Assembly: GCA_049517655.1 (NCBI GenBank)
Contig: JBEKRQ010000001.1
Coordinates: 749,379-813,378, forward strand
Source of the DNA: Verrucomicrobiota bacterium
Lineage (GTDB): Bacteria; Verrucomicrobiota; Verrucomicrobiia; Limisphaerales; UBA11358
Length of the DNA: 64,000 nt
Direction of reading: 5' to 3'
Below the pieces are notes generated by a model, which saw nothing but the letters and a program-made list of their open reading frames with translations, searched no databases and was not told the DNA's origin. Numbering within the stretch: position 1 is the first letter of the stretch; each line of letters starts with the position of its first letter. The position numbers and the translations under genes were made by a program. This document shows, one piece after another, positions 94 through 59,128 of this stretch.

Positions 94-3000
94 TCAGGCT
101 CGCGTTACTAATTGCCGCAATACGCAAGGCAAAATGCCACCGTGCCGGTAGTAATCAATTTCAACCGGCGTATCGATGCGGCAACGGACCGTCACGTTTT
201 CCACTTTACCGTTTTTGCGCGTGATTTTAAGCGTGAGGTCCTGCTGCGGTTTCAGGTTCACGCCAAGGCCGACAACGTCATAGGTTTCAGTTCCGTCCAG
301 CTTCAATGCCCGTGCGGAAACGCCTTCCTTGAATTGCAACGGCAGCACGCCCATGCCGACAAGGTTGCTGCGGTGAATGCGTTCAAAACTCTGCGCGACA
401 ACAACTTTCACTCCGAGCAACGCCGTGCCTTTCGCCGCCCAATCGCGCGAGCTGCCCGCGCCGTATTCTTGGCCGGCAATCACAACCAGCGGCGTCCTGC
501 TCTTCGCGTATTCCATTGCTGCGTCGTAAATCGGCATTTTGTTTGGGAGGGACGGCGTGCCGCCGTCCCCGGATTTGGGACTGCAACATGCAGTCCCCCC
601 CATGAACAACGTATTTCCGCCTTCTTCACCGGCGAGCATGAGGTTCTTGATACGCACATTGGCGAACGTGCCGCGTGTCATCACGCGGTCGTTGCCGCGG
701 CGAGAGCCGTAGCTGTTGAAGTCCGCTGGCTGAACGCCGTGCTCAATCAGGTGCTTGCCGGCTGGTGAAGTTTCCTTGATGGAACCGGCGGGCGAAATGT
801 GGTCGGTCGTAATACTGTCACCGAAAATGGCCAGTGCCCGCGCGCCTTTGATTTCGCGGATTTCACCGGGCTTCATTGAGAAGTTCTCGAAGAACGGCGG
901 TTCCTGGATGTAAGTGGATTCGCGGTCCCATTCATAGACGTTGCCGGCGCTCGACTGAATTTCATTCCACTTTGGATTCTGCGCGACGAAATCCTTGTAA
1001 AGTTTGCGGAACACATCCGGTTGCAATGCGGCCTGCATGAGGTCGCAAATCTCGCGCTGGGTTGGCCAAAGGTCCTTCAGGTAAACCGCCGTGCCGTTTT
1101 TGTCTTTGCCAATCGGTTCATTGGCCATGTCAATGTCCACCCGCCCGGCGAGCGCGAACGCGACGACCAGCGGCGGCGACATGAGGAAATTCGCCTTGAT
1201 GCTCTGGTGGATGCGCGCCTCAAAGTTGCGGTTTCCAGACGATACCGAAGCGGCGATCAGATTGTGTTTATGAATCGCATCCTCAATCGGCGCGGCGAGC
1301 GGACCGGAATTACCGATGCATGTCGTGCAGCCATAACCGACGAGATTGAAACCGAGTTTGTCGAGATACGGCTGCAGCCCGGTCTTGTTCAAATAATCGG
1401 TGACGACGCGCGAACCGGGCGCAAGTGAAGCCTTCACGAGTGGATTCACACTGAGTCCGCGTTCGACCGCTTTTTTTGCAAGCAAGCCGGCGGCGAGCAT
1501 TACGCTGGGATTGCTTGTGTTCGTGCAACTCGTGATGGCGGCAATCAAAACCGAACCATTACGAATTTCGCCTTCCCCCGTCCGTACCGGAGTTGTGACC
1601 GAATCGGGTGTCGGACGATTGTTTGCCATTTCGAGTTCTGTGAACGGATTTGTGTTTTGCGATTTTGCGGCCTGCAATGAAACCGGTTCCTGACTGCCGC
1701 CACCGATCGCAGATTTGCCATTGGCGGAAACGGAAAATATTTTTGCCAAATCCCCAGGCGGTCTGCCAAAGCCATTTTCCGCCACGGATTTGCTGAATGC
1801 TGCGGCGAAATTTTCCTTCAGCTTCGGCAATTCAATTTTGTCCTGCGGGCGTTTCGGTCCGGCGACACTCGGCACGACAGCGCCGAGATCGAGTTCCAAT
1901 TCACGCGAATAGGCAATGTCGCCTTTTTTCGGAATGCCAAACAAGCCCTGCGCCTTGTAATAATTTTCGTAAAGCCTGCAATGTTCCACGCTACGGCCGG
2001 TGGCATGGAGATAATTCACGCACTCGGTGTCAATCGGGAAAAAGCCCATCGTCGCGCCGTATTCGGGCGCCATGTTGGCAATGGTCGCGCGGTCCACCAC
2101 CGGCAACGCCGCCGCGCCCGGCCCAAAAAATTCAACGAATTTGCCGACCACCTTCGCCTTGCGCAGCATTTGCGTGACGGTGAGCGCAAGGTCGGTGGCG
2201 GTAACGCCTTCACGCAACGAGCCGGTCAGGTGCACGCCGACGACATCCGGCGTGAGAAAATAAACCGGCTGGCCGAGCATTCCGGCTTCGGCTTCAATGC
2301 CCCCAACGCCCCAGCCCACGATGCCCAAGCCGTTGATCATCGTCGTGTGCGAATCCGTGCCGACAAGGGTGTCGGGATAAAAGAGTTGAGAGTTGTCGGT
2401 TGAGGGTTGAGCGAGCACGCCCTTGGCGAGGTATTCCAGATTGACCTGGTGGACGATGCCAATGCCGGGTGGAACGACTTTGAACGTGTCGAACGCCTGC
2501 ATGCCCCACTTGAGAAATTGGTAACGCTCGCGGTTGCGTTGGAATTCAATTTCGAGATTGCGTTGGAACGCGTCAGTCGTGCCGTTCACATCCACTTGCA
2601 CCGAATGATCAACCACGAGGTCCACCGGAACGAGTGGCTCGATGATTTTCGCGTTTTTGCCCAGCCGCTGCACCACCGAACGCATCGCCGCCAAATCCAC
2701 CAGTAATGGCACGCCGGTAAAGTCCTGCAGCACGATGCGCGCGACGATAAACGGAATTTCCTCTGTGCGGGTTTCGGTCGGCTTCCAGTTCGCCAGCGCG
2801 CGGACGTTTTGTTCAGTCACTTTTTTACCATCACAGTTCCGCAACACCGATTCGAGCACGAGGCGTATGGAGACCGGCAATTTGGAAATCGGCCCGATGC
2901 CGGCCTTTTCCAACGCGGGCAATGAATAAAACCGGCCGGGCTTCCCGCCGCCGGGATCAAATTCCTGAAGCGTGCCAAATAAATTATGCGGTGTGCTCAT
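94..3000 (-). CDS. acnA: aconitate hydratase A (AcnA/IRP type)
   Basis: 968-aa ORF with aconitase signatures [21 protein letters not shown] and [10 protein letters not shown]. Carries two repeat-derived in-frame inserts (549-597, 2385-2412). Confidence 0.95.
549..597. repeat. twin GGGAC...GTCCC hairpin module, in frame inside acnA
   Basis: gggacggcg-tgc-cgccgtccc (549-569) and gggactgca-aca-tgcagtccc (577-597). Encodes [19 protein letters not shown] in a loop that is about 16 aa shorter in E. coli AcnA as I recall it. Confidence 0.8.
2385..2412. repeat. heptamer array GTTGAGA-type (4 units) inside acnA
   Basis: gttgaga gttgtcg gttgagg gttgagc; encodes [10 protein letters not shown]. The same heptamer occurs in recJ. 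Confidence 0.8.
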
Positions 3001-7915: not shown

Positions 7916-9742
7916 ATGAGCACCAGCCCAAAACAAGGCGAGCTTGCGCCGTCTGATTTTATCCGCGACATCGTCGCCACTCATGTCGCCGAAAAAAAAT
8001 ATCCGCAGATTCACACCCGCTTTCCGCCGGAGCCGAACGGTTATCTCCATATCGGCCACGCCAAGAGCATTTGCCTGAACTTCGGCATCGCGCACGAGTT
8101 CGGCGGCATTTGCAACCTGCGTTATGACGACACGAATCCCGCCAAAGAGGAGGTCGAATACGTGGATTCCATTCTTGAGGATGTTCAGTGGCTGATTGCC
8201 GGCTGGGCTGACAACAAACTGGGCTTGAAGCCAAAAGGTAAAAGACCGGATACAATTACGAGCAACGGCAAGCTCGATTTTTATCTTCCTGCTGTTATCG
8301 GTAGGGCGGGCTCTCCGCAGCCCGCCGCAGAACGGCGCGATGAGACATCGCGCCCTACCATCGAGCCATTTTACGCTTCGGATTACTTCGACCAGATTTA
8401 CGAATACGCCGTGATGCTCGTCAAAAAGGGCAAGGCCTACGTCTGCGACCTGACACCGGACCAGACCGATGAATACCGCCGCCAAGCCAAGGAAAGCCCG
8501 TTCCGCAACCGGCCCGTCGCTGAAAACCTCGACCTCTTCACGCGCATGAAGAACGGCGAGTTTCCCGATGGCAAGCGTTCGCTCCGCGCGAAGATTGACG
8601 TCGCCTCGCCGAATATTTGGATGCGCGATCCCCTGCTCTATCGCATTCGGCACGCCGACCATCATCACACCGGCGGCAAATGGTGCATCTACCCGATGTA
8701 TGACTTCGCCCATTGCTTGAGCGATTACATCGAAGGCATCACGCACAGCATTTGCACGCTCGAGTTCGAGGTGCACCGCCCGCTTTACGATTGGATTCTG
8801 GAAAACCTCGATCTGCCGCGTCCGTTGCCCAAGCAATACGAATTCGCCCGCCTGAGCCTCGGATACACCGTGATGAGCAAACGCAAGCTCATGCAACTCG
8901 TGAACGAAAACCTCGTCACCGGCTGGGACGACCCGCGCATGCCGACCATTTGCGGCATCCGGCGACGCGGCGTCACGGCAGAAGCTCTGCGGGCGTTTGC
9001 CTACAACATCGGCATCACGAAATACAACGGTATCACCGACGTCGCCGTGCTCGAACACGCCATCCGCGAAGACCTGAACAAAATCGCGCTGCGTCGACTC
9101 GCCGTGTTGCGGCCTGTCAAAGTAGTCATCACCAATTATCCTGAAGGCAAAACCGAGGAACTGGATGCCGTCAACAATCCCGAGGACGAAAGTGCGGGCA
9201 AACGGAAGATTCCGTTCAGCCGCGAACTCTACATCGAACAAGACGATTTCAAGGAAGTTGCCGTGCCGAAATTTTTCCGGCTGAAACCCGGCGGCGAAGT
9301 CCGGCTCAAATACGCCTACATCATCAAATGCGACGAAGTGGTGAAGGACGCGAACGGAAAGATTGTGGAACTGCGCTGCACCGCCGACCTCGACAGCAAG
9401 ACCGGCGGCCCGACGGCAAATCGCAAAGTCAAAGGCACGATACATTGGGTGAGCGCCTCGCACGCTATTGACGCCGAAGTGCGCCTCTACGACCGGCTTT
9501 TCACCGAAGCCGAGCCGGAGAAGGACGGTCGCGACTTCAAATCCGTCCTCAACCCGCACAGCCTTGAAGTCGTGACGGCCAAATGCGAACCCGCCGTCGC
9601 TGAAGTTATGGCGGGCAGGCCGAGCGACGTGCGTTACCAATTCGAGCGTTTGGGATATTTTGCGTTGGACAAAGACAGCGCGCCCGGCAAATTGGTTTTC
9701 ACTCGGACGATTGCTTTGAAAGATACTTGGGCAAAAAAATAA
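7916..9742 (+). CDS. glnS: glutamine--tRNA ligase
   Basis: Class I motifs HIGH (LHIGHAKS) and KMSKS variant (VMSKR). Colinear with E. coli GlnRS as I recall it, except for a ~45-aa insert containing the repeat at 8300-8359. Confidence 0.95.
8300..8359. repeat. family-A palindromic element (GGTAGGGCG...CGCCCTACC), 60 bp, in frame inside glnS
   Basis: Terminal 9-bp inverted repeats. The first 28 nt are identical to the reverse complement of the right end of the hypF copy (56904-56931). Encodes [20 protein letters not shown]. Confidence 0.9.
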
Positions 9743-11304: not shown

Positions 11305-11460
11305 GGAAATTAGCCCGGCACATCGTGCCGGGTTGATTGTTCATCTCGCATTTTTCCGTCCTGAGGGGACGGCGGAAATATACGCACACTTTCTACCGTC
11401 CCTCCGGGACGTGACACATTCTTCATGCCAACCGGGGGACGTTGTCCCCGGCTAATTTCC
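11305..11460. repeat. 156-bp hairpin-rich element bounded by 11-bp perfect inverted repeats (MITE-like or structured RNA)
   Basis: ggaaattagcc (11305-11315) pairs with ggctaatttcc (11450-11460). Internal GC hairpins at 11314-11332, 11356-11372, 11397-11411 and 11432-11451. A further GTCCC/GGGAC hairpin lies at 11289-11301. Confidence 0.8.
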
Positions 11461-12914: not shown

Positions 12915-12969
12915 GTGGCACAGGCCTCCGGCCTGTGAACCCTAAACACAGATCAGAGATCTGTGCCAC
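12915..12969. repeat. family-C double-hairpin element (GTGGCACAG...CTGTGCCAC), intergenic copy
   Basis: Hairpins cacaggcc-tccg-gcctgtg and cacagatc-agagatctgtg, with outer gtggcacag / ctgtgccac complementarity. Confidence 0.85.
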
Positions 12970-17444: not shown

Positions 17445-18296
17445 TTACGTGCTCGCGCTGGTGTAACGGCGGATGGAGAAGCGCCAGAACCATTCGGAAA
17501 TGAGCGCCCAAATAACACCCAAGCCGAACAGCGCCGACAAAGCGGCGGGCGATGTCAATTTGTCCGCCAGCACGCGCACGGGCACGTTGGACACCAGCAA
17601 CACCGGCAAGGCGAAGGTGAACACGGCCTTGAACACGCCGCGAAACGCTTCATCCGGCATCCGCGCGATGTTGAACAGATTGTAGTAGCCCCACACGATG
17701 CCTTGCGCGCGCACGGTCCAAAAACTCACCGAGGCAAGCATGAACATGAGCGAGTAATGCACCAAAAGCCCGACAACGCACAAAGCGGCAAAGACGAGCA
17801 ACTGCGCGGTGGTTGGGTGCAAATGTAATTTCCCTGCCGCAAAAACCATGACGCACACGGCGAACGCGGCGTTGGCAAATGACGGCAGGTCCACCTGTCG
17901 CATTGAAACGAGGAAACGCGTGTTGACCGGCAGCAGCAGCAGGAAATCCATTTTGCCCGTGCGGACGAGTTCGGAGAGGTTCGTGCAGTTCACGAGAAAG
18001 AACGCCTGGTAAATTTCCTGGATAAAATTGCTCGTGCCGGTGAGTAGCACCACCTGCCACACCGTCCACGTGCCGACGGTGCTGGTTTGACTGAAAAGAA
18101 CGCCGACAAAGGCGAGTTGCAGTCCGAACCACAGCAATTCGACGACAATCCAAAGAATAAAGTTGCCCTTGAACGACATTTCGCGCGTCACGGAAGTTTT
18201 CCACAACGCAGCGTAAATGGTGAGATAACGAGCGACGCCGGATACGAGTTGCGTGACGCCCGTTTCTGCCTTCTGTCTTCTGCCTTCTGCCTTCAT
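17445..18296 (-). CDS. ABC-2 type transporter permease (PF06182-like), second of pair
   Basis: Multi-TM protein typical of ABC-2 family permeases. Start moved to MKAEGRR, immediately after the stop of the upstream permease. The first codons are encoded by the heptamer array 18264-18294. Confidence 0.6.
   Translation of the reverse strand: MKAEGRRQKAETGVTQLVSGVARYLTIYAALWKTSVTREMSFKGNFILWIVVELLWFGLQLAFVGVLFSQTSTVGTWTVWQVVLLTGTSNFIQEIYQAFFLVNCTNLSELVRTGKMDFLLLLPVNTRFLVSMRQVDLPSFANAAFAVCVMVFAAGKLHLHPTTAQLLVFAALCVVGLLVHYSLMFMLASVSFWTVRAQGIVWGYYNLFNIARMPDEAFRGVFKAVFTFALPVLLVSNVPVRVLADKLTSPAALSALFGLGVIWALISEWFWRFSIRRYTSAST
18264..18294. repeat. heptamer array TTCTGCC x4
   Basis: ttctgcc ttctgtc ttctgcc ttctgcc at the junction of the two ABC-2 permease genes. 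Encodes MKAEGRRQKAE. Confidence 0.85.
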
Positions 18297-19262: not shown

Positions 19263-21665
19263 ATGAAAAGATGTTTTTCACTCGTTTTGGCGGGGTGCGC
19301 AATGTTTATGTTTTCTCCTTCTTCGGCACGCGCCGTTCCCGGCGACGAGCATTGGGACCCGCAATTCAACTGGCCGGGCACGACGAATATCATCATGGGC
19401 ATTGGAATCGGCGGCGGAAAAATTTATGCGGGCGGCGAGATCAGCGCCGGCACGCTGACCAATGCGCCGCTGGAAGTGTGGGACGGTTTGCAGTGGTCCA
19501 CGATAGGTGCTTTTACCGGCAGCCCCGCAGTCATCGAAGATATTGCCGTTGCAGGCGGCACGCTGTATGTCGGCGGAGTTTTCACGACTGTCAATGGCGC
19601 AGCGATCAACGGGCTTGCCAAATGGGACGGGACAAGCTGGAGCGGAATTGGCTTTTCCGGCATCGTTTACGGGTTGGCCGTGAACGGCAATAATCTTTAT
19701 GTGGCCGGCTCATTCACCAATACCGACGCTGGCGGCGTGATGATGACCAACATCGGTTATTGGGATGGGAGCGCCTGGCACGCTTTGGGTGGTGGCCTCG
19801 GAACACCGGGCACCGGCTCGGCAAGGGTGGTCGCCGTCAACAACGGTCTGGTTTACGCAGGCGGTTCTTTCACCAATTCCGGCTCGCAACTCATCACGAA
19901 CCTCGCGGTGTGGAATGGTTCCGGTTGGTCGGCGGTCGGCGGTGGAGCCAATTCAGTTGTTTATGCCCTGACATTCAACGGAACTGATCTTTACGTCGGC
20001 GGCTCCTTCACGCAGGCTGGCCCCACGCTGGCGACGAACATTGCCAAGTGGGATGGCGTGAACTGGTCGGCGGTCGGCGGCGGTTTGACCGGCACGGGCA
20101 GCAGCGTGAACAGCCTCGCTGTTTTCAATGGCTCGGTTTGCGCGACGGGCGTGTTCACCAACGCCGGCGGGTTGATGGTGGCCAACTTCGCGGTTTGGAA
20201 CGGCTCGTCATGGTCGGTGGCCAACGGCGGCATCAGCGCGACCGGCTACCGCGTCGTCAACAACGGCACAAACGTTTATGTCGGCGGCAATTTTATTTCA
20301 GCAGGCAACAAATTGATGAACGGCATCACGGCCTGGGATGGCGTGAATTGGAACCCCATTGGAACCGCCGGCCGAATCAACGGCATTTATGCCACCGTCC
20401 GGGCTTTGGCCGGCGATGGGACAAATTTATACACAGGCGGAAGCTCGTTTTATTGGGCGGGACAAACCAACGTGAACCTGATCGGCCGCTTCGACGGCAC
20501 GAATTGGTATCCGCTCGGCACCGGCATCAGCGGGTCAAGCGTCATCAGCGGCCCCATCGGCACCGGTATTCTCACCATCGCCCTCACCAATAATTACGTT
20601 TATGCCGGCGGCTATTTCACAAACGCCGGCGGTGTGCCAGTAACCAACATCGCTTCCTGGAACGGGTCAAACTGGTCTGCGATGGGCAGCGGCCCCGGCG
20701 GCGTGGTGGCTTCCATTCTCGTCCGCCCGGACGGCGTTTATGCGGTGGGCGCGCCGTTTTACAATGTCAGCTATTACAACAGCCCGTTTTTCTCCCGTTG
20801 GGACGGTTCGAGCTGGCAGGGTGTTACCATCAACTTTCCGCCTTATACCGATTGGGAAACTTCTATTAGTCCCAACCTTGGCATGGCCGCGTTGGCCTGT
20901 ATCGGCACCAACATTTTCATCGGCGGCTATTTCTACCTTGGTGAATATACCAATCCACCTTCCGGCTATGTCGGCTGCAACAATATCATGCGCTTCGACG
21001 GCACATACGGGTGGGTCATGGGCATGGGACTCAGCAGCAACGTCACCGCCATGGCCGTCATCGACACCAATCTTTTTGTCGCAGGACAGTTCACGAATGC
21101 CAGCGGCGTGGCGGCCAGCAAGATTGCCCTGTGGAATGGCAATTACTGGACGAATCTTGGCAGCGGGCTGGTTGGCAGCGGCGTTATCAACGGGCTGGCG
21201 ACCATGGGCGGGAATCTTTACGTCGGCGGCACGTTCACCAACATGGGCGGCACACCGGTTAATCGCATCGCCAAATGGGACGGTACAAATTGGTCCGCGC
21301 TCGGCAACGGCGCCACTTATCCCGGCTTGAGCAGCGCCTCCATCTTCGGTCTCGGTGTTTTGGGCAACAGCCTTTATGCCAGCGGAAGTTTCCGAATGAT
21401 GGGTGACAAGCCGTCGTTCTACATCGCGCGTTGGAACGAGCAGAAGAATTTCGACACGCCGCAAATCAGCCCCCTCTTCGTGACCAACGGTCTGTTTCGC
21501 ATGCGGCTTTTCGGAGTCAGCGGCATGACCAACCTCATTCAGGCTACTACCAATTTTACCACTTGGACGCCGATACTGACCAACAGTGCCGGTATCTACG
21601 ACTTCAGCGACCCGAACTCTTCAAGTTATCCCTTCAGATTTTACCGCGCGGTTCTTGGCCCATAA
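19263..21665 (+). CDS. secreted beta-propeller-type repeat protein
   Basis: Signal peptide, then about 14-16 units of ~50 aa with the pattern W(D/N)G..W..(L/V)G.G....V.AL...G..LYVGG.FT..GG....NIA.W. C-terminal domain ends ...YPFRFYRAVLGP. Confidence 0.7.
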   Translation: MKRCFSLVLAGCAMFMFSPSSARAVPGDEHWDPQFNWPGTTNIIMGIGIGGGKIYAGGEISAGTLTNAPLEVWDGLQWSTIGAFTGSPAVIEDIAVAGGTLYVGGVFTTVNGAAINGLAKWDGTSWSGIGFSGIVYGLAVNGNNLYVAGSFTNTDAGGVMMTNIGYWDGSAWHALGGGLGTPGTGSARVVAVNNGLVYAGGSFTNSGSQLITNLAVWNGSGWSAVGGGANSVVYALTFNGTDLYVGGSFTQAGPTLATNIAKWDGVNWSAVGGGLTGTGSSVNSLAVFNGSVCATGVFTNAGGLMVANFAVWNGSSWSVANGGISATGYRVVNNGTNVYVGGNFISAGNKLMNGITAWDGVNWNPIGTAGRINGIYATVRALAGDGTNLYTGGSSFYWAGQTNVNLIGRFDGTNWYPLGTGISGSSVISGPIGTGILTIALTNNYVYAGGYFTNAGGVPVTNIASWNGSNWSAMGSGPGGVVASILVRPDGVYAVGAPFYNVSYYNSPFFSRWDGSSWQGVTINFPPYTDWETSISPNLGMAALACIGTNIFIGGYFYLGEYTNPPSGYVGCNNIMRFDGTYGWVMGMGLSSNVTAMAVIDTNLFVAGQFTNASGVAASKIALWNGNYWTNLGSGLVGSGVINGLATMGGNLYVGGTFTNMGGTPVNRIAKWDGTNWSALGNGATYPGLSSASIFGLGVLGNSLYASGSFRMMGDKPSFYIARWNEQKNFDTPQISPLFVTNGLFRMRLFGVSGMTNLIQATTNFTTWTPILTNSAGIYDFSDPNSSSYPFRFYRAVLGP

Positions 21666-25456: not shown

Positions 25457-25475
25457 CACAGGCCTCTGGCCTGTG
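25457..25475. repeat. family-C half element (single hairpin) directly after the aspC stop
   Basis: cacaggcc-tct-ggcctgtg. Same hairpin as the first half of 12915-12969. No U-tract. Confidence 0.75.
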
Positions 25476-27959: not shown

Positions 27960-28682
27960 TCAAGTTTTATTTCGCAGCAGCATTTCGACGAACGGCAAAT
28001 CACCCGCCATCGTAATCTTGGGATTTGGCGCGATGCTCGACACAAGCCGGACCGGCTGGCCAATCAATTCGCACGCCGCCGTATCGTCCGTGAAAACGAG
28101 CTTGCGGCGGCGCGCTTCGGTCAGCGCGCGGCGAATCACCTCCACGCGAAACGTCTGCGGCGTTTGCACCGCCCATAGGCGCGACCGGTCAAGCGTGCAT
28201 CGAATCAATCCGCCTTCCGTCGATTCCTTGATTGTGTCCGTCACCGGCTGCGCCGCCACCGCCGCGCCGGTTTCGTCCGCCGCCTTGACCGTCGCCGCGA
28301 TCAATTCCCTGCTCGTGCAAGGCCGCGCCGCGTCGTGAATCGCCACGATTTCCGCCGTCGGCGACAATGCTTCCAGACCGTTCCAGACCGAATCCTGCCG
28401 TTCCGCTCCGCCAACGACAATGCGGAACGGTTTTTTAAAAAGGAATTTCGCCGCCAGTTCCCTGAAAGCCTCCTGCATTCCGTCGCGCACGACGAGAATG
28501 ATTTCATCGATGTATTTTACCTCATCGAACCGCAGCCATGTGTGCGCCACGACCGGACGCCCGGCCACTTCCAGAAACAATTTATCCGCCCCAGCTTGTG
28601 TGGCCGAAGCTTCTCCAGCCCGGCGAAGGCCCGCGCCCATGCGGACACCTTTGCCGGCAGCGACCAGAATGGCTGAAACCAT
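27960..28682 (-). CDS. ispD: 2-C-methyl-D-erythritol 4-phosphate cytidylyltransferase
   Basis: Motifs AAGKGVRMG and IHDAARP. Start moved to MVSAILVAAG. The upstream part of ORF 27960..28703 lies in the heptamer array. Confidence 0.85.
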   Translation of the reverse strand: MVSAILVAAGKGVRMGAGLRRAGEASATQAGADKLFLEVAGRPVVAHTWLRFDEVKYIDEIILVVRDGMQEAFRELAAKFLFKKPFRIVVGGAERQDSVWNGLEALSPTAEIVAIHDAARPCTSRELIAATVKAADETGAAVAAQPVTDTIKESTEGGLIRCTLDRSRLWAVQTPQTFRVEVIRRALTEARRRKLVFTDDTAACELIGQPVRLVSSIAPNPKITMAGDLPFVEMLLRNKT

Positions 28683-28690
28683 GGGAACCA

Positions 28691-28725
28691 GTCTAAAGTC
28701 CAAAGTCCAAAGTCCAAAGTCTAAA
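28691..28725. repeat. heptamer array GTCCAAA x5
   Basis: gtctaaa gtccaaa gtccaaa gtccaaa gtctaaa, with the complementary cagactttggac at 28749-28760. Lies in the recJ-ispD spacer and abuts the ispD start. Confidence 0.9.
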
Positions 28726-28769: not shown

Positions 28770-30584
28770 TTACGCCGCCCGCCAATCCAAAACTTTCAAT
28801 TGCACCGTGCGGCGGCCGTTGAACTCGTTGATTTGCGGCGCGAACGCCAGGTCAAATTTTCCGATGGGCAATGACGCTTCACCACCATTCCACCAAACAG
28901 CTTCCAACACCGTGCCGCCCGCAGCGCCGTAGCCGCCTTGCGGCGAAGGCGTGTCCGTCACCCACATCTTGACGTGCCGCCTGTCCGCGCCGATGCGCTG
29001 GAGCGGTCGCGCGTGGGTGAGATTGCGCGCGCAGAATCGCACGCCGGGATTTCCCTGCCCCGTTGGTTTCAAACGCGCCAGCTCGTTCAGCGTTTCAAAA
29101 TTCATTTCGTCCAGGCCGACTTCCGCATCGAGGCGCAATGACGGTTGCAAATCCTCCGGTTTCAATTCGCGGCGCGCCAATTCGTTCAATCGCTCCCGCA
29201 GCGCGTCAATTTTGTCCGATTGAATGCTCAAGCCCGCGGCCATTGCGTGCCCACCGTGGCGCACCAGCAAATCGTCGCATTCGCGCAATGCGGCGGCCAG
29301 ATCGAAACCCGCGATGCTGCGTCCCGATCCACGCCATTCATCGCCCTCACCACCAATGATGATGGTGGGCCGGTAAAACTCCTGCAACACACGCGACGCG
29401 ACGATGCCGACAACGCCGATGTGCCAGAGTAATTGTCCTTCGACGATGACGAAGTCTTTCCCCGGGTCAAACTTCGCACGTAATGTGCCGACAACTTCCT
29501 CGACGATGTCACGCTCGATTTTTTGGCGTTCGCGATTCCGCGCATCGAGACTTTGTGCCAGCGGCATGGCTTCGGCCTGACTGCGGACGAGCAGCAGATG
29601 CAGCGATTCCTCGGCTGATTCGAGCCGACCGGCGGCGTTGAGGCGCGGCGCAAGTTGAAAACCGACTTCGTGTGTGCCCAACATGGCGGGCGATTGCGCG
29701 GCCTTTTTCAACGCGATGAGACCGGGCCGTTTCGTCGTGTTCAGCCGCTGCAAACCGGCGGAAACAAGAATGCGGTTTTCGCCGATGAGTAGCACGAGGT
29801 CGGCGATGGTGCCCAGTGCGACCAAATCGAGCAGCGGGCGCAAATCGAATTCCGCAGCGCCGGGCAGATTCATCTCGCGTCCGCGTTTGACCAGGGCGTG
29901 CGCGAGTTTGAAAGCGAGACCAACGGAGCAGAGTTCGGTAAAAACGGTTGAGGGTTGAGAGTTGCCCGCCTTCACTTCGTTTCGGCGCGGTCGCGCCGGA
30001 GCTTCCAGCGGAGGCGGAAGAGTTGAGAGTTGTGGATTGACCAGCGCGACTGCCTCCGGCGCGGGCGAAGAAATCTGATGATGATCGAGAACAACCACAT
30101 CCACACCGCGTTCACGCAGCCATGAAATGGTTTCTACGGCGGTCGAGCCGCAATCCACGGCCAGCAAGAGGGTTACAGGAAATTTTTTGAGGCAATTTTC
30201 GACGCCGTCCTGGCTCAGGCCGTAGCCTTCGTCCATGCGATTCGGCAGATAAAAATCCACCTTCCAGCCCAGCGTGCGCAAAACTTCAACAAGCAGCGCG
30301 GTGGAAGTGACACCGTCCGTGTCGTAATCGCCAAAAATCACGAGCGGTTCGTTTTGCTCCCGAGCATGGAGCAATCGCCCGACAGCGGCGTCCATGTTCG
30401 GCAGTAAAAACGGGTCGGCGAGATTTTTAAGGCGCGGCTGCAAAAAATCACGGATGGCAATCGGCTCACTGAAGCCGCGATTCAGCAGGCATTGGGCAAG
30501 CAGCGGCGGGATTTTGAGTTGCGCGGCCAGTTGACCGGCGAGCAGAGGTTGCGGTGGCGCGAGCGACCAGTGAAATTTCATCAT
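28770..30584 (-). CDS. recJ: single-stranded-DNA-specific exonuclease RecJ
   Basis: DHH motifs (FGDYDTDG, VVLDHHQ) and DHHA1 motif GGHAMAAG. Start moved to MMKFHW. Contains the repeat-derived insert 29947-30035. Confidence 0.9.
   Translation of the reverse strand: MMKFHWSLAPPQPLLAGQLAAQLKIPPLLAQCLLNRGFSEPIAIRDFLQPRLKNLADPFLLPNMDAAVGRLLHAREQNEPLVIFGDYDTDGVTSTALLVEVLRTLGWKVDFYLPNRMDEGYGLSQDGVENCLKKFPVTLLLAVDCGSTAVETISWLRERGVDVVVLDHHQISSPAPEAVALVNPQLSTLPPPLEAPARPRRNEVKAGNSQPSTVFTELCSVGLAFKLAHALVKRGREMNLPGAAEFDLRPLLDLVALGTIADLVLLIGENRILVSAGLQRLNTTKRPGLIALKKAAQSPAMLGTHEVGFQLAPRLNAAGRLESAEESLHLLLVRSQAEAMPLAQSLDARNRERQKIERDIVEEVVGTLRAKFDPGKDFVIVEGQLLWHIGVVGIVASRVLQEFYRPTIIIGGEGDEWRGSGRSIAGFDLAAALRECDDLLVRHGGHAMAAGLSIQSDKIDALRERLNELARRELKPEDLQPSLRLDAEVGLDEMNFETLNELARLKPTGQGNPGVRFCARNLTHARPLQRIGADRRHVKMWVTDTPSPQGGYGAAGGTVLEAVWWNGGEASLPIGKFDLAFAPQINEFNGRRTVQLKVLDWRAA
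29947..30035. repeat. GTTGAGA-heptamer-flanked insert inside recJ
   Basis: gttgagg gttgaga gttgccc (29947-29967) and gttgaga gttgtgg (30022-30035) bracket a GC-rich core with the palindrome ggcgcggtcgcgcc. Encodes ...LSTLPPPLEAPARPRRNEVKAGNSQPST.... Confidence 0.8.
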
Positions 30585-30591
30585 TAAATCG

Positions 30592-30681
30592 AACCACGAA
30601 TAAACACCAATGGACACGAACTTTTTTTGGCACGGATGCCGCGGATTTTTGATTCGTGTTTATTCGTGTTCATTGGTGGTT
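30592..30681. repeat. inverted pair of decamer-repeat arms in the terC-recJ spacer
   Basis: Left arm aaccacgaataaacaccaatggacacgaa; right arm ttcgtgtttattcgtgttcattggtggtt. The same 10-bp units appear in opposite orientation, but complementarity is imperfect. Confidence 0.7.
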
Positions 30682-34596: not shown

Positions 34597-36423
34597 CTAT
34601 TTTAAAGTTTCAACTTTAGCTTCCGGCTCGACCCACTTGTTATGTTCCTTGATAAGGTCAACGAGTCGTTCCACAGCTTCGGCTTCGGGGATGTTGAACT
34701 TGATCGCCTGCTTGCCGACGTAAAGGTTGATCTTGCCGGGCGCGCCGCCAACGTATCCGAAGTCGGCATCTGCCATTTCACCCGGGCCGTTCACGATGCA
34801 GCCCATGATGGCGATTTTAACACCCTTGAGATGCTCCGTCCGAGCCTTGATGCGAGCCATCACGGTCTGCAAGTTGAACAGCGTCCGCCCGCACGACGGG
34901 CACACCACGTAATCGGTCTTGAACGAACGGCAGCCCGCTGCCTGCAAAATATTGTAAGCCAGCCGCAGCGATTGTCCGCTGTCGGACTCCCCGCGAATCA
35001 AAATCGCATCGCCAATGCCGTCCGCCAGCAGCGAACCGATTACAACGGACGCGCGCAGCAAGACGATTTTGGGTTCCAGTGGCACAGACCTCTGGTCTGT
35101 GTTCGCCCTTTCATTCACAGGCTGGAAGCCTGTGCCACATAAACAATCCTTGAGTAGAATCGGATTGTTGCGACCAAGTCTCTTCAATTTCGCCACGAGC
35201 AGACGGAATGCAGTAATCGCGGGTAAATTCACACCATCTTTTACAGTCACGAGTTGCGTGTCACTGTTAATGTTGAAATCCTTTGTTGGGTCGAGTTCCG
35301 CAACATTCAAGTCTTCATAGACTGCCTCCGGTTTCACGTCGTCCCTCAGGCGAATCTTCGGAGTAACCTTGTCCCACGTGGCGCGAGTGACGACGACGCG
35401 GATGAGCTGTTCGCCGCCGCACTTGAAATTTTCGCTTGGAGAAATTCCCGGCGTTTTGCGACGCTCGAAGTGGAAGGGGTCGAACGGAAATTCCGAATTC
35501 GGAATTCGGAATTCGGAATTCGACAGTTTGGGAATTTGCGCCAGCAAATCGCGGCAGACCTCGACTTCGCGCGGCGAATCTTCCGTGAGTGAAACTCGGA
35601 TCGTGTCGCCCAACCCGTCGCACAGCAACGAGCCGATGCCGATGGCGGATTTGATGCGGCCGTCCTCGCCCCCGCCCGCCTCGGTCACACCCAGGTGGAT
35701 CGGATAATTCCAGTCCGGCCCTTCCTGTTCCAGCCGCGCGACGAGCAGCCGATAACATTCGATCATCACCTTGGGATTGCTCGCTTTCATCGAGAATTTG
35801 AAGTTGTGGAAATCGTGCATGCGGCAGATGCGGGCGAATTCCAACGCGCTCTCGACCATGCCAAGCGGCGTATCACCGTAACGGTTCATGATGCGGTCGG
35901 AAAGCGAGCCGTGGTTCGTGCCGATGCGCAACGCGCGCTTCAGGCGTTTGCACTCGATGACCAGAGGCGTGAATTTTTCCTCAATGCGCTTTAATTCGGC
36001 GGCGTATTGCCCATCGGTGTATTCCTTGCCGGCAAATTTCTTGGAATCGGCGTAGTTGCCCGGATTGACACGCACGACTTCGACCCATTTCACCGCTTCC
36101 ATCGCCGCCTCCGGTTTGAAATGGATGTCGGCGACGATAGGCACGTTGCAGCCGCGCTTGCGAAGCCCGGCGACAATGTTTTTGAGATTCGCCGCGTCTT
36201 TGACTGTCGGCGCGGTGATGCGGACGATCTGGCAGCCGACGGCGACGAGGTCGAGCGTTTGTTTCACGCACCCGGCGGTGTCCATCGTGTCGCATGTAAT
36301 CATGGACTGTATGACGACCGGATGGTCGCCACCAATGACGATGCCGCCGCGCGCCGGATCGCCGATGACAATTTCGCGGCTCTTCCGCCGCTGATGAAAA
36401 AATGGTGATTCGCAGTAGCGCAT
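34597..36423 (-). CDS. ispG: 4-hydroxy-3-methylbut-2-en-1-yl diphosphate synthase (long-form IspG/GcpE)
   Basis: TIM-barrel N-terminus (VIQSMITCDT) and C-terminal Fe-S motifs CPSCGRT and GCIVNGPGE. Start moved to MRYCESPFF directly after the rseP stop. Two repeat inserts (35079-35138, 35486-35521). Confidence 0.9.
   Translation of the reverse strand: MRYCESPFFHQRRKSREIVIGDPARGGIVIGGDHPVVIQSMITCDTMDTAGCVKQTLDLVAVGCQIVRITAPTVKDAANLKNIVAGLRKRGCNVPIVADIHFKPEAAMEAVKWVEVVRVNPGNYADSKKFAGKEYTDGQYAAELKRIEEKFTPLVIECKRLKRALRIGTNHGSLSDRIMNRYGDTPLGMVESALEFARICRMHDFHNFKFSMKASNPKVMIECYRLLVARLEQEGPDWNYPIHLGVTEAGGGEDGRIKSAIGIGSLLCDGLGDTIRVSLTEDSPREVEVCRDLLAQIPKLSNSEFRIPNSEFPFDPFHFERRKTPGISPSENFKCGGEQLIRVVVTRATWDKVTPKIRLRDDVKPEAVYEDLNVAELDPTKDFNINSDTQLVTVKDGVNLPAITAFRLLVAKLKRLGRNNPILLKDCLCGTGFQPVNERANTDQRSVPLEPKIVLLRASVVIGSLLADGIGDAILIRGESDSGQSLRLAYNILQAAGCRSFKTDYVVCPSCGRTLFNLQTVMARIKARTEHLKGVKIAIMGCIVNGPGEMADADFGYVGGAPGKINLYVGKQAIKFNIPEAEAVERLVDLIKEHNKWVEPEAKVETLK
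35079..35138. repeat. family-C double-hairpin element, 60 bp, in frame inside ispG
   Basis: The reverse complement aligns along its whole length with 12915-12969. Encodes GTGFQPVNERANTDQRSVPL. Confidence 0.9.
35486..35521. repeat. heptamer array GGAATTC x4-5 inside ispG
   Basis: ggaaattc cgaattc ggaattc ggaattc ggaattc, each unit carrying GAATTC. Encodes SNSEFRIPNSEFPF. Confidence 0.9.
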
Positions 36424-37848: not shown

Positions 37849-38994
37849 TTAAATTGTGGCTTCGTGCCGCGCCCAAGCGTCGGCTTCCAAAATTTGTTCG
37901 AGTGTCGGATGCAGAACGACTTTGTGCCGTTCCATGGTGCGCCGCACTGTTTCCGCGATTTGCGGGAAATTGATTTTGCGATCTACGAACGCTTTGACCG
38001 CGACTTCGTTGGCCGCGTTCAATACCGCCGGCAGCGTGCCGCCCATCTCCCCTGCCCTGCGCGCAAGATTCAGCGCCGGAAAGCGTTCCACGTCAGGTTC
38101 TTCAAACGTGAGGCTGCCGAGTCTGGTGAAATCGGTTTGCACGCGTCCGCTCGGCGCGCGATCGGGATACGTTAATGCGTATTGAATCGGCAAACACATG
38201 TCCGGCGTGGACAACTGCGCGAGCATTGAGCCGTCCACAAACTCGACCATTGAATGAACGATGCTCTGCGGATGCACCAGCACGCCGACGCGTTCCATGC
38301 CAATATTGAACAACCACCGCGCTTCGATCATCTCCAGTCCTTTATTGAACAGCGTGGCCGAATCAATTGTAATTTTGCGGCCCATGACCCACGACGGATG
38401 TTTGAGCGCGCACTCTACCGTGATTTCCGAGAATTTTTCCTTCGGCCAGATTTTTTTGTCGCGAAACGGCCCGCCGGAAGCGGTCAACCAAAGTTTGCGG
38501 ACTGAACTCGGAGGCTTTCCATCGAGACATTGGAAAATCGCCGAATGTTCGCTGTCCACGGCGAGAACGCGGACGCCGTGTTTGCGCGCTTCTTCCATGA
38601 CGATTTCGCCGGCCATGACCAGGATTTCCTTGGACGCGACGGCGATGTCCTTGCCGGCGCGAATCGCGGCGAGCGCGGGTTTTAGTCCCGCCGTGCCAAC
38701 AATCGCAATCAACACAATGTCCGCCGACGGCAACGTGGCGAGTTTGATCAAACCTTCGTCGCCTGAATAAACCTGCGTGGTTGCGCCGAAGAATTTTCCC
38801 AGTTTGCGGGCTTTTTCCGGATTACCGATGCAAATTGCCTCGGGCCGGTGTTTGCGGGTTTGCTCAAGAAGCAACTTAGCGTTATTGCCCGCAGCCAGGC
38901 CAACCAGCCGGATCCGATCCGGCAAATCCCCGGCGACTTTGACGGTGCTGGTGCCGATGGAACCGGTGCTGCCAAGGAGAACGACGTTTTTCAT
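37849..38994 (-). CDS. dxr: 1-deoxy-D-xylulose 5-phosphate reductoisomerase
   Basis: N-terminal GSTGSIGT NADPH motif. Full-length Dxr pattern in the classic cdsA-dxr-rseP synteny. Confidence 0.95.
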   Translation of the reverse strand: MKNVVLLGSTGSIGTSTVKVAGDLPDRIRLVGLAAGNNAKLLLEQTRKHRPEAICIGNPEKARKLGKFFGATTQVYSGDEGLIKLATLPSADIVLIAIVGTAGLKPALAAIRAGKDIAVASKEILVMAGEIVMEEARKHGVRVLAVDSEHSAIFQCLDGKPPSSVRKLWLTASGGPFRDKKIWPKEKFSEITVECALKHPSWVMGRKITIDSATLFNKGLEMIEARWLFNIGMERVGVLVHPQSIVHSMVEFVDGSMLAQLSTPDMCLPIQYALTYPDRAPSGRVQTDFTRLGSLTFEEPDVERFPALNLARRAGEMGGTLPAVLNAANEVAVKAFVDRKINFPQIAETVRRTMERHKVVLHPTLEQILEADAWARHEATI

Positions 38995-39902
38995 GGAACC
39001 AGGATATGCCGTAAATAGAGATACATGATGGGCGCGTTGAACAAAAGACTGTCGAGCAAATCGAGAATGCCGCCGATGCCGGGGAAAAAACTGCCGGAGT
39101 CTTTCACGCCGGCCCCGCGTTTGAACAACGACTCAATCAAATCGCCGACGACGGCAGTCATACCGAACAAAACGCCGAGCAGAACGGCGTGGAACCAGTT
39201 CATGTCCGCCATTTTATCTCCAAAAAAACCTGCAAACAGGGCGCTCGACGCCGTCGAAAATAAAATCGCGCCGCCAAAGCCCTCCCAGGTTTTGCCGGGG
39301 CTGATGCGCGGCATCATCTTGTGCCTGCCGATGAGCGAGCCGACGGCATACGCGCCGGTGTCGCTGAACTTTGTGACCAGCACGAAGTAGAGCAGAAAAA
39401 ATTTGCCATCCACGCCTGGGAAAAAATTGATTTTTTGAATGAAGTTCAACAGCCACGGCACATACATGAGACCGAAGAGTGTCGTCGCAATGGCCACGAT
39501 TCCCACCGCGTTGGACTTTGACAATAATTGTCGCAGACACAAACCGAGCACGAACAAGATAAGAAAGCCCGTTTCAAAATCGTTGACGCGCGCCGGGGAA
39601 CCCGAAGTGCCAAGATGACCGGTTAAATTCAAAAATGTCCCAACCATCAGCAGCACGCCGCCGAGCAGACCGCACCACTTGAAGCAAACAAGGCCGCATT
39701 TTTCGGCGAGTCCATAAAATTCCGCGAGGCCGGCCAGCGCGAGAAAGACAATGATGAGAATGAATACGCCATTGGAAATCAACGCGTTGCCGGAAAACAA
39801 AGCGGTGATGATCACCGTCCAGAGAATCACCGAGGTGATTAACCGGCGGAGAAAAACCTGCGCCTTCGAGGGCGTTTGCGCTGCCGCAGCTGCGTCGGAC
39901 AT
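38991..39902 (-). CDS. cdsA: phosphatidate cytidylyltransferase
   Basis: Polytopic protein with a C-terminal CDS signature region SLFKRGAGVKDSGSFFPGIGGILDLLDS. This deviates from the HGG / DR positions I recall. Start moved to MSDAAAAAQ. Confidence 0.8.
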   Translation of the reverse strand: MSDAAAAAQTPSKAQVFLRRLITSVILWTVIITALFSGNALISNGVFILIIVFLALAGLAEFYGLAEKCGLVCFKWCGLLGGVLLMVGTFLNLTGHLGTSGSPARVNDFETGFLILFVLGLCLRQLLSKSNAVGIVAIATTLFGLMYVPWLLNFIQKINFFPGVDGKFFLLYFVLVTKFSDTGAYAVGSLIGRHKMMPRISPGKTWEGFGGAILFSTASSALFAGFFGDKMADMNWFHAVLLGVLFGMTAVVGDLIESLFKRGAGVKDSGSFFPGIGGILDLLDSLLFNAPIMYLYLRHILVP

Positions 39903-40124
39903 GCGCGCGCAAGGTAACAGACGTGGCGGCGATTGCCAACACCGACTTCTGTCGCGCAGAATGAAGTTCTTAATTGCATTGTAGCGGCGCTCTGTGAGCG
40001 CCGACGTTGGCAATTCGGATATTGCGGCGGTCACAGACCGCCGCTACAGCCAAGTTGGATTCACTTAACAATTGCGCGGCGCGCGTTTTTGTGCAAAAGC
40101 TGTTGTCGCACGAACGGCAAGGCT

Positions 40125-40200
40125 GGGGTCGTAGCTCAGTTGGTAGAGCGGCTGGTTCGCAATCAGCAGGTCAGGGGTTCGAATCCCCTCGGCTCCACCA
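40125..40200 (+). tRNA. tRNA-Ala (anticodon CGC), CCA encoded
   Basis: Manual cloverleaf: acceptor GGGGTCG/CGGCTCC with the G3:U70 alanine identity pair; D arm GCTC-AGTTGGTA-GAGC; anticodon loop TTCGCAA; T arm AGGGG-TTCGAAT-CCCCT; terminal ACCA. Confidence 0.9.
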
Positions 40201-40220
40201 GCCCCGAAAGCTTTCGGGGC
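40201..40220 (+). other. perfect 20-nt palindrome directly 3' of tRNA-Ala
   Basis: gccccgaaagctttcggggc forms a 10-bp stem but has no U-tract. It could be a processing or termination hairpin. Confidence 0.4.
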
Positions 40221-40327
40221 TGCCGCGCCGGAGCACGAAGTGCGAAGGCGGGCCGACACCAGCCAAGTGCAATACGCTCCGAGCTACGGATGGCAAGCCA
40301 ATTCATATTTTGACAAACTCATTCTAT

Positions 40328-50225: not shown

Positions 50226-50280
50226 GGTAGGGCGCGATGTCCCCATCGCGCCGCGGCGGGCTGAGACAGCCCCCCCTACC
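50226..50280. repeat. family-A element in the PFOR / DHOD-like spacer
   Basis: ggtagggcgcgatgtccccatcgcgccg...cccccctacc. The first 27 nt match the copy at 59047 with one mismatch. Confidence 0.85.
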
Positions 50281-51290: not shown

Positions 51291-51489
51291 TCAAGTCTGC
51301 CTGGAGGAAAAACGCGGATTTTCTCAACGCAAAGACGCAGAGTGCGGAGTGAACCGCGAAGCGCAATCGCGCTGAAGGCGCGTGAAATCAGGGAATGGCG
51401 ATACGCTGTCCCTCCCGGAAATCTGTGGTTCAATTCTTTGTGTTCCTTTGCGGCAAGAGAGATTCGGAGGGACGCGTTCAAGCGCGTTT

Positions 51490-52419
51490 TTAAAAAACTT
51501 CTGCTTTCAAACCGGTCACCTGCCGCACGGTCTGGGCAATGTTGGAAAGCGTTTTCAACGGCAGATGCCCGCACTCCGCGTGGGCCATGGGGCGCGTGGC
51601 GGAATAAATCTGCACCAGCGGAATTTGCGCACCGTTGTCCTTCAGTTCCTTGAGCCGCTGCACATATTGCACGATTTCTTCCGGCGACGGTTCTTCGCCG
51701 TTGATGGCGGGGAAAAGACTTTGAATGACCACCGGACGCTGGCGGGCGAGCTGAAGAATGTTGGAGAGGATTTTTTCCAGCGACGTATTTTTCAAACGGC
51801 AAACCTTGTTCAAATACTCCTGCGTGCCGCCGTCGAGCTTTACCCAAACTTCGTCGGACTTGGTAAAATGCCTCAAACTTTCCTGGATCTGCGGATGATC
51901 CAGTCCGGTGGCGTTCGTGATCAACACAATTTTGAAAAATGGAAGTCCGCCCATCGCCCTGATATGAATCACTGCTTGCACCGCCTCGGCGAAATTCGGT
52001 GATAACGTCGGCTCCCCATCGCCGCTCAATGCCACGTGGCTCAACTGCAACAACTCATTCGGCAACGATTGATATTGCGGACGTTCGTGCAACCGGTTTT
52101 GCAGGACAAACGCCAGAGTCCTGTGCAGTTCCGTCGCCATGACGCCCGCGTCCAGTTTCATCTCCAGCGGCGGCGTGCGCCGATCCACCTCGCAGTATAA
52201 ACAGTCGAAGTTGCAGTGTTTGTCCGGGTTCATGTTCACGCCCAGCGACAGGCCGCGCGCGCGCGACGAGAGGACCGCATAAACAAAGCGGTTGTTCAGA
52301 AAATCACGGGGCCGGTCGAAAGCGGCTTCGCGCGATGGTGCGTGCCTTTTCTTTTCCGGCAGTCCGGCTGCAGTCACGGTTTTGGCATGAATCTCTCCCA
52401 TAATTCCTGTCTGGCACAT
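51490..52419 (-). CDS. radical SAM protein, function unknown
   Basis: CX3CX2C motif CNFDCLYC near the N-terminus, plus a GDGEPTL glycine-rich SAM motif. Confidence 0.75.
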   Translation of the reverse strand: MCQTGIMGEIHAKTVTAAGLPEKKRHAPSREAAFDRPRDFLNNRFVYAVLSSRARGLSLGVNMNPDKHCNFDCLYCEVDRRTPPLEMKLDAGVMATELHRTLAFVLQNRLHERPQYQSLPNELLQLSHVALSGDGEPTLSPNFAEAVQAVIHIRAMGGLPFFKIVLITNATGLDHPQIQESLRHFTKSDEVWVKLDGGTQEYLNKVCRLKNTSLEKILSNILQLARQRPVVIQSLFPAINGEEPSPEEIVQYVQRLKELKDNGAQIPLVQIYSATRPMAHAECGHLPLKTLSNIAQTVRQVTGLKAEVF

Positions 52420-59046: not shown

Positions 59047-59128
59047 GGTAGGGCGCGATGTCCCTATCGCGCCGTGGCTGGCCGCCGGTTTTCGCACGAG
59101 CGGCGCGCTGGGGACAGCGCGCCCTACC
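59047..59128. repeat. family-A element in the hoxH-hoxW spacer
   Basis: ggtagggcgcgatgtccctatcgcgccg...gggacagcgcgccctacc. Confidence 0.9.

Follow-up and report, generated by a model that had tools for sequence, protein, structure and literature searches.

We analyzed a 64,000-nucleotide stretch of DNA (the window) from a Verrucomicrobiota bacterium (GenBank assembly GCA_049517655.1, contig JBEKRQ010000001.1, positions 749,379 to 813,378). Its acnA gene, encoding aconitate hydratase A, contains two in-frame segments that are probably passenger repeats, scattered by the genome of this lineage: an intragenic doublet of repetitive extragenic palindromic (REP) units at site 1 and a decayed heptamer array at site 2. 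An initial annotation of the window had described the two segments as different, repeat-derived inserts of aconitase. Their repeat origin is borne out, since site 1 belongs to a multi-copy doublet family and site 2 is one of many arrays with a period of seven. But both are expressions of one genome-wide habit and not, on this reading, adaptations peculiar to aconitase.

The host gene is the AcnA gene of a peat Verrucomicrobiota bacterium. Its product matches the NCBIfam model TIGR01341 over the full length (1308.7 bits, cut-off 945), shares 53% identity with E. coli AcnA (BLASTP), matches human IRP1 (PDB 2b3x) with E = 7e-281 and contains both the GTDSHTTM and the CTTCIGNSG motifs. The nearest database proteins come from peat or wetland metagenomes and, where named, from metagenome-assembled genomes (MAGs) of Limisphaerales, Verrucomicrobiae or Verrucomicrobiota. 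The acnA region is complete in 20 peat or wetland runs.

A hairpin doublet at site 1

The two adjacent perfect hairpins noted initially at site 1 are present as described; both stems are perfect over 9 bp and enclose loops of 3 nt (Table 1). They are the core of a larger, 59-bp unit that the initial annotation had missed. This unit is bounded by GGGAGGGAC and GTCCCTCCC and ends in 10-bp terminal inverted repeats (TGGGAGGGAC / GTCCCTCCCA; GTCCCcCCCA, with the general form GTCCCYCCCA), which show one mismatch in the window and are perfect in orthologs. The closing pair of unit 2 is A-T in the window and G-C in the orthologous loci L084 and L082, and the hairpin of L084 is still perfect. With three mismatches allowed, shuffled sequences gave a chance expectation of 0.12 and 0.03 matches to hairpins 1 and 2, respectively. 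The 78-nt stretch around the element has a predicted folding energy of -43.8 kcal/mol as RNA (z = -5.3) and of -26.5 kcal/mol as DNA (z = -5.35), and none of 200 shuffles was equal in either case. The predicted minimum-energy fold of the RNA is one long hairpin.

Read on the minus strand, the element adds 20 Gly/Thr/Ser/Pro-rich residues directly after EEGGNTLF (net gain, 16 residues). The corresponding loop had been described as about 16 residues shorter in E. coli AcnA, and the BLASTP alignment contains a gap of exactly 16 residues here; human IRP1 has 17 residues fewer. The spacer between the hairpins, AGTCCCAAATCCGG on the coding strand, resembles a heptamer unit such as that of an AGTCCAA array elsewhere in the window (28690-28725; see below).

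The site 1 element at other loci

In a scan of one genome from each bacterial species, we looked for pairs of GGGAC-N11-GTCCC units with a spacing of 3 to 20 nt and obtained at least 118 stretches; the following counts refer to the matches listed. Verrucomicrobiota MAGs were heavily over-represented among them. Selection by the end tags alone (GGAGGGAC...GTCCCTCC) yielded 54 doublets that fall into two groups. In the 30 doublets of the acnA type, each unit is palindromic by itself. Their inner 4-bp stems are perfectly complementary in 48 of 60 hairpins, with 14 different inner sequences. Unit 1 of the window has exactly the sequence of the family's commonest unit, with the inner stem GGCG (22 of 60). 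Since the loop reads TGY in the first unit (24 of 30 doublets) and RCA in the second (27 of 30), the two units are inverted copies of each other. They are separated by A/T-rich spacers of 7-19 nt. The other 24 doublets form a sister type (CGGAGGGACGAG...) with two mutually complementary halves like those of a classical REPIN, a pair of inverted REP units.

Several MAGs have two or three loci of the family, again among the matches listed. One of them, LacPavin_61_7, carries both the insert in acnA (L169) and a further copy located on a separate contig (L113). In the peat runs, some loose ends of contigs begin within hairpin 1 and run into other spacers and units, which indicates further copies in the community. 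In Verrucomicrobiota genomes the acnA-type family occurs both between genes and in frame within them. Doublets of this type are read in frame in the genes for Mfd (L189), an aminotransferase (L178) and an N6 DNA methylase (L111), and a sister-type doublet lies in the zinc-finger region of LigA (L136). The acnA element is tagged by GGAG (TGGGAG followed by GGACGGCG) where classical REPs have GTAG. Judged by its sequence, it has the anatomy of a REP doublet, with the build of GTAG-tagged REPs and GGAG in place of GTAG.

The Mfd protein of MAG SPRUCE 441 (L189, 2424-6095) is an extreme example of a repeat-decorated housekeeping protein. Besides its REP doublet it contains several peptides of heptamer and REP type (NSKLKTQNSKL, KSKVQSPESKV, EPSTFNLQPST, RNRRDACPT and two GERxGARGA segments).

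A heptamer array at site 2

The segment at site 2 had been described as a four-unit array of GTTGAGA type just upstream of the catalytic motif. Tandem Repeats Finder (TRF) indeed reports a period of 7 with 4.3 copies and 78% matches, at a weak score of 32. Positions 2385-2411 read GTTGAGA GTTGTCG GTTGAGG GTTGAG on the forward strand, a spaced pattern with a chance expectation of 0.00, and the translation ends 8 residues before GTDSHTTM. The recurrence of the heptamer, together with the peptide NSQPST, in recJ was confirmed as well (Table 1). Site 2 shows no secondary structure (z = -0.6). The designation as an insert holds for site 1 when compared to E. coli AcnA, but not for site 2, where the difference from E. 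coli AcnA is only 1 residue. Site 2 does have 5 extra residues when compared to the corresponding part of IRP1 or to the short form seen in many close orthologs (LEANGVYYPDT).

The period is also seen in the site 2 DNA of 35 orthologs with the long form, in which identity at lag 7 is 0.56 compared to about 0.28 at lags 3, 6, 8 and 9. The units differ between these genes (CTCAACY, CAGAGGT, ATCTCAA, CATCCAG and others). The usual long form has 16 residues and the short forms have 8 or 9; the 7 additional residues over the 9-residue form correspond to three units. A search of 1.2 Mb of related DNA gave 109 tandem arrays of three or more copies. Of these, 59 have period 7, with 44 different units, compared to 1 in shuffled sequences. 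About half of the period-7 arrays lie well inside long open reading frames (ORFs), but the selection of loci for acnA inflates this share. Within the window, period-7 arrays occur in the genes for IspG, HypF (three arrays) and RecJ. A literature search for heptamer arrays in Verrucomicrobia found no paper, and translated arrays of this kind appear to be undescribed in Verrucomicrobiota.

Three more observations on such arrays were made. The IspG gene contains five copies of AATTCGG (35489-35522), read as SNSEFRIPNSEF. Five copies of AGTCCAA (28690-28725) are located just downstream of recJ, at or before the start of ORF 27960-28703. Locus L039 has two very long heptamer arrays (18129-18232, 14.9 copies; 20648-20730, 11.9 copies) within stop-free stretches of 787 and 906 codons, which are putative genes.

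Variation of the two sites among orthologs

In a comparison of 121 AcnA orthologs of 78-100% identity, length proved highly variable at just two places within the protein, aa 198-204 and aa 800-819. Each shows 16 distinct lengths, and these are the two sites under study. At least six kinds of filler occupy site 1 in the orthologs. Among those read at the DNA level are other REP-like hairpin inserts, tagged by GTGG in L007 and by GTAG in L051 and with a 10-bp stem in L020, and a heptamer array (L063). The site 1 segment is not common to unrelated aconitases, as it is absent from E. coli AcnA and human IRP1. Even orthologs of 78-88% identity carry the element only in a patchy subset; in many others the loop is short or filled by a different insert. 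The carriers are spread over the gene tree. Most of them have a closest relative, with 91-95% identity outside the loops, in which the site holds a different insert or an apparently truncated form (GGSAGKSAATGE). For the window gene, the nearest relative (P0007) is 91.2% identical and the nearest fellow carrier (P0012) 84.7%. A metagenome scan for acnA relatives returned 80 loci of 65-81% identity, none with the site 1 element. Short-form loops (CAG CCN GGC GGC GAG CAG) contain no obvious copy of the REP tag, and target mimicry was rejected.

Indel variation at population level had been suggested as a check. For site 1, four peat runs were compared by their main contigs (depth 18-85), which show neither differences nor indels over positions 1-2074, and 16 further runs contain all sampled words of the acnA region. 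As far as contigs can tell, the insert is fixed; this result refers to assembled contigs, from which rare variants drop out, so that rare alleles are possible. One low-depth contig skips positions 2381-2412. The skipped length of 32 nt suggests a diverged relative rather than an allele. The site 1 element is also present in independent assemblies (L083-L086, L169, L205). RNA runs contained only 5-7% of the words of the acnA region.

AcnA of the window has a third insert of about 45 residues in the linker region (aa about 421-475, window 1570-1750, starting with GGGSQEPVS). It is clade-specific and does not look repeat-derived. It is absent from E. coli AcnA and IRP1, kept in most of 120 orthologs and missing in eight of them (P0039, 53, 65, 68, 70, 73, 74 and 91).

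Related elements in the window

The window has 43 hits to perfect hairpins with stems of at least 8 bp, compared to 4-11 in shuffled sequences, and nearly all of the strong ones carry a tag of the type G[TG][AG]G (GTAG, GTGG or GGAG). The elements are compiled in Table 1. Genes that host in-frame doublets in the window were confirmed by Pfam matches on both sides of the insert.

Table 1. Repeat-derived elements of the window and their host genes
Feature	Position	Strand	Sequence or remarks
acnA, aconitate hydratase A, host gene	94..3000	minus	ORF of 968 aa
59-bp REP doublet (REPIN-like) in acnA	544..602	.	in frame, AcnA domain 4, 20 residues
REP unit 1 of this doublet	549..569	.	GGGAC-GGCG-tgc-CGCC-GTCCC, GGGACGGCGtgcCGCCGTCCC; 9-bp stem, loop TGY
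A/T-rich spacer	570..576	.	CGGATTT, 7 nt
REP unit 2 of this doublet	577..597	.	GGGAC-TGCA-aca-TGCA-GTCCC, GGGACTGCAacaTGCAGTCCC; 9-bp stem, loop RCA, inverted relative to unit 1
Decayed heptamer array in acnA	2385..2412	minus	coding strand CTCAACC CTCAACC GACAACT CTCAACT; 10 residues
GTAG-tagged REP doublet in GlnRS gene	8300..8359	plus	GGTAGGGCG...CGCCCTACC, 60 bp; in frame, 20 residues
GTAG family (sister family in GlnRS), intergenic copies	50228-50252 and 59048-59128
GTAG REP unit, for comparison	24118		GGTAG followed by GGACATCC...GGATGTCC
GTGG-tagged REP doublet in IspG/GcpE gene	35079..35138	minus	GTGGCACAG...CTGTGCCAC, 60 bp; in frame
GTGG family, intergenic copy	12915-12969
GTGG family, single unit	25457-25475
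Two decayed GGAG-tagged REP units	51392..51490	.	GGGAATGGCGataCGCTGTCCCTCCC and CGGAGGGACGCGttcaaGCGCG; between convergent genes
Further GGAG-tagged remnant	near 11380-11450		outside genes
Heptamer GGTTGAG x2.7 in RecJ gene (28770-30617, minus)	29946..29964	minus	GGTTGAGGGTTGAGAGTTG; in frame, encodes GNSQPST
HypF gene	55948-58488	minus	at least four in-frame repeat-derived segments
GTAG-type REP unit in HypF gene	about 56890-56935
Heptamer arrays in HypF gene	57155-57185, 57219-57253, 57547-57578		ATTGCGG, CCGCATT and ATTTGCG, respectively

A peptide of GDARPT type is encoded near 57190-57215 in the HypF gene. Another GTAG-tagged REP doublet (TGTAGCGGCGCTCTGTGAGCGCCG...GCGGCGGTCACAGACCGCCGCTACA, 39980-40050) is situated at the apparent overlap of two divergent ORFs (38991-40034, minus; 40007-41131, plus). 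It would be intergenic, because the annotated starts of these ORFs are probably too far upstream. The same genome also has, outside the window and some 3 kb past acnA (L205, 16046-16512), a gene of the ParE-toxin family with a small upstream partner.

Transposase homologues in relatives

REP sequences are associated with the REP-associated tyrosine transposases (RAYT), which are IS200/IS605-like Y1 enzymes. Homologues of IS200-like Y1 transposases (Y1_Tnp; 30.3 bits, Pfam cut-off 23) are encoded directly downstream of acnA in L084 (10125-10871), L020 (3587-4438), L086 (12864-13701, frameshifted) and L005 (2986-3282), and away from acnA in L136 and L074. In L084, L020 and L136 they are flanked by GGAG-tagged doublets of the GGAGCGC type (GGAGCGCCG... 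in L084 and L020), not by GGAGGGAC units. Single GGAGCGC units adjoin the homologues of L005 and L074. In L084 and L020, a GGAGCGC doublet is inserted in frame within the transposase gene itself (ERRAPPRCESEPASNVPRRCSALR in L084).

Origin of the segments

If both segments are passengers, the following course of events may be proposed. REP units would be moved as single-stranded hairpins by RAYT enzymes, and the peptide at site 1 would be a by-product of the element, while the array at site 2 has probably grown by slippage. Permissive loops would act as a filter on a constant rain of insertions, and a REP that is already present may attract further REPs. In acnA such passengers probably survive because the two loops tolerate changes in length and because the insertions keep the frame and introduce no stop codon.

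Several points weigh against a passenger origin or leave it less firm. Neither the window nor the adjoining 10 kb past acnA (L205, same genome) yielded a RAYT gene, and no RAYT with flanking GGAGGGAC units was seen among the loci examined. The transposase link for the acnA-type family is therefore one of analogy, and its mobilization by RAYT is inferred from the REP class. The GGAG tag is outside the variants listed for the GTAG superfamily in the text of Di Nocera et al. (2013). In the 64-kb window the acnA-type family consists of the acnA copy and three decayed relatives only; the 74 kb covered of the same genome contain this one intact copy and the three decayed relatives. A slippage origin of the heptamer arrays is assumed. 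An AlphaFold2 model based on 69 close orthologs (pLDDT 51, pTM 0.35) was too poor to judge whether the inserts are exposed. The site 1 insert also shows more conservation than would be expected of a neutral passenger. Eight carrier acnA genes share 75-80% DNA identity. Their identity at third codon positions is 0.59 gene-wide and 0.87 within the insert. At four-fold-type codons for the same residue, third positions of the insert are identical in 10-13 of 12-15 cases, compared to about 55-60% throughout the gene. The peptide is conserved as well.

Candidate explanations for this combination of conservation and patchiness are selection on the hairpins, re-homogenization by other copies, short-tract recombination, and repeated loss and re-insertion. 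A recent recombination tract was rejected, since divergence in the flanking 100 codons to either side equals that of the remaining gene (third-position identity 0.52-0.60), which leaves room for a very short tract. Selection on the hairpins would mean that, in addition to their repeat origin, they act in place as nucleic acid and the doublet is kept in acnA for this reason. They could serve as a DNA site that is bound or cleaved by RAYT or gyrase, or as an mRNA structure for stability or for the speed of translation before the last domain folds. We regard such a role as rather unlikely, although it would agree with the conservation at synonymous sites and with the strong predicted fold. It would also agree with the pairing of 96% of the stem positions in the eight carriers, including one double change from A-U to G-C (L084, L082) and two C-to-U changes that preserve a G-U pair, which only RNA tolerates. 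But most pairs are invariant, so that covariation is thin and 17 of 500 shuffles reach the observed score. Moreover, many close orthologs do well without the insert or with a truncated or different one, the element has no match in Rfam even at E = 1, and re-homogenization or short-tract recombination could also account for its conservation.

Synonymous-site constraint is left unexplained by selection at the protein level, which tells against the idea that the 20-residue peptide is an adaptive feature, such as a Cys-Cys metal or redox site or an interaction loop, with incidental palindromes. The peptide is 80-100% identical in about 20 listed orthologs that are about 80% identical overall, which speaks for this idea. 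Its Cys pair, however, varies (CC, CR, CG), and near-identical peptides occur in apparently spurious antisense ORFs (GGTACCRPKS...TASLP in L113, GGTACCRPICC...GGTPSLP in L117), while confirmed genes use other reading frames of the element. In addition, the closest relative of most carriers fills the loop differently. We therefore consider an adaptive peptide very improbable. A local origin of the palindromes by template switching or quasi-palindrome correction, or their appearance by chance or as an assembly artifact, might be suspected from the single intact copy of the exact family in the 64-kb window. This can hardly be upheld. The same 25-nt units with their tags are found at dozens of unrelated loci, and such a multi-locus family refutes a local origin. 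The chance expectation is at most 0.12, and the region is identical without indels in four peat runs and recovered in 16 further runs and in independent assemblies.

Taken together, we favor the view that both segments of acnA are passenger repeats. A wider reading can be put forward only tentatively, and we rate it as somewhat doubtful: the two loops would be long-lived landing pads in which REP doublets with three or more kinds of tag and heptamer arrays of many units have repeatedly replaced one another. One doublet would be under selection at the DNA or RNA level across species in which synonymous sites are otherwise saturated, and the period-7 arrays would be a second, undescribed class of translated repeats. 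If true, this lineage would offer a natural experiment on how repeats drive the evolution of loops in proteins. Where conserved enzymes of Verrucomicrobiota MAGs seem to have lineage-specific "insertions", these can be selfish DNA that is translated, which matters for annotation, alignments, trees and the functional reading of loops. AcnA is a compact example, with two loops, 16 length classes each and dozens of independent fillers, of proteins that are reshaped, yet not broken, by heptamer arrays and elements of REP type. The synonymous conservation and the patchiness together raise a testable question, namely whether REP doublets within genes are under selection.

Comparison with known systems

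By its features, the site 1 element is close to the REP class. Its units of 21 nt with perfect 9-bp stems compare to 20-40 bp and stems of 6-9 bp or longer in the class, copies are dispersed (the 30 tag-selected doublets in the fetched loci, among the matches listed), and the units form an inverted pair according to their TGY/RCA loop order and the predicted long-hairpin RNA fold. For a cognate RAYT, the Y1_Tnp homologues of relatives are flanked by GGAGCGC-type doublets, not by GGAGGGAC units. Miniature inverted-repeat transposable elements (MITEs) are 70-300 bp long, with terminal inverted repeats of 15-30 bp and a target-site duplication. An identity with MITEs was rejected, as the site 1 element has 59 bp, 10-bp inverted ends and no flanking direct duplication.

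Rickettsia palindromic elements (RPEs) are reportedly palindromic selfish DNA located in frame in Rickettsia housekeeping genes. They are translated, tolerated and patchy among orthologs; RPE-1 has about 100-150 bp, and the hosts are Alphaproteobacteria. The acnA element is likewise an in-frame palindromic passenger of a housekeeping gene with a patchy distribution across orthologs. It shows no sequence similarity to RPEs, however, and is a 59-bp doublet of 21-nt hairpins in a Verrucomicrobiota host. Identity with RPEs was therefore rejected, the in-frame habit being the only common ground. REPIN/RAYT systems are said to be present in Pseudomonas and E. coli. Like a REPIN, the acnA element consists of two inverted REP units able to fold into one long hairpin, and RAYT homologues with flanking REP doublets are present in relatives. 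But classical REPINs are reportedly almost always extragenic, whereas the acnA element is intragenic and no RAYT was tied to its family here. The array at site 2 can be compared to the short tandemly repeated repetitive (STRR) heptamers reportedly found in heterocystous cyanobacteria. In both cases, many different 7-nt units form short tandem arrays dispersed over the genome, and the period-7 unit of site 2 recurs in recJ. Phylum and units are different, and about half of the arrays found here are inside long ORFs and translated.

The closest precedent is the description of GTAG- and CGTC-tagged REPs by Di Nocera, De Gregorio & Rocco (2013, BMC Genomics 14:522; PMC3733652), as far as its main text goes. 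Intragenic GTAG REPs are reported there to be most numerous in the verrucomicrobium Opitutus terrae, in which the tag variant GTGG also occurs. Dimers or groups that encode 20-30 residues make up more than half of the intragenic inserts, DNA ligase and tRNA synthetases are among the hosts in various species, and the authors relate their finding to RPEs (Di Nocera et al. 2013). The elements studied here share with the O. terrae GTAG REPs the short palindromes with 6-9 bp stems, the 5' tetranucleotide tag, the frequent inverted dimers and the intragenic position. Doublets tagged by GTGG or GTAG lie in the IspG, GlnRS and HypF genes of the window, and a relative has a doublet in LigA. By their tags, the window elements in the GlnRS and HypF (GTAG) and IspG (GTGG) genes fit the GTAG-REP superfamily. 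For the acnA element we rejected membership, because its GGAG tag is none of the variants listed in that text (GTAG, GYAG, GYRG, GTRG, GTMG and GTGG); we call it a GGAG-tagged relative. It also differs from the O. terrae case in its host, which is of another order (Limisphaerales or Verrucomicrobiia in the records), and in that the inner stems of acnA-type copies vary yet stay complementary. Aconitase is not mentioned in the main text of Di Nocera et al. (2013), a search that did not extend to the supplementary list of decorated ORFs. Since intragenic REP dimers have been reported in Verrucomicrobia (Di Nocera et al. 2013), and RPEs in Rickettsia, the kind of element is already known. New are the aconitase case, the GGAG-tagged family, the two hot-spot loops, the conserved synonymous sites and the large number of translated heptamer arrays.

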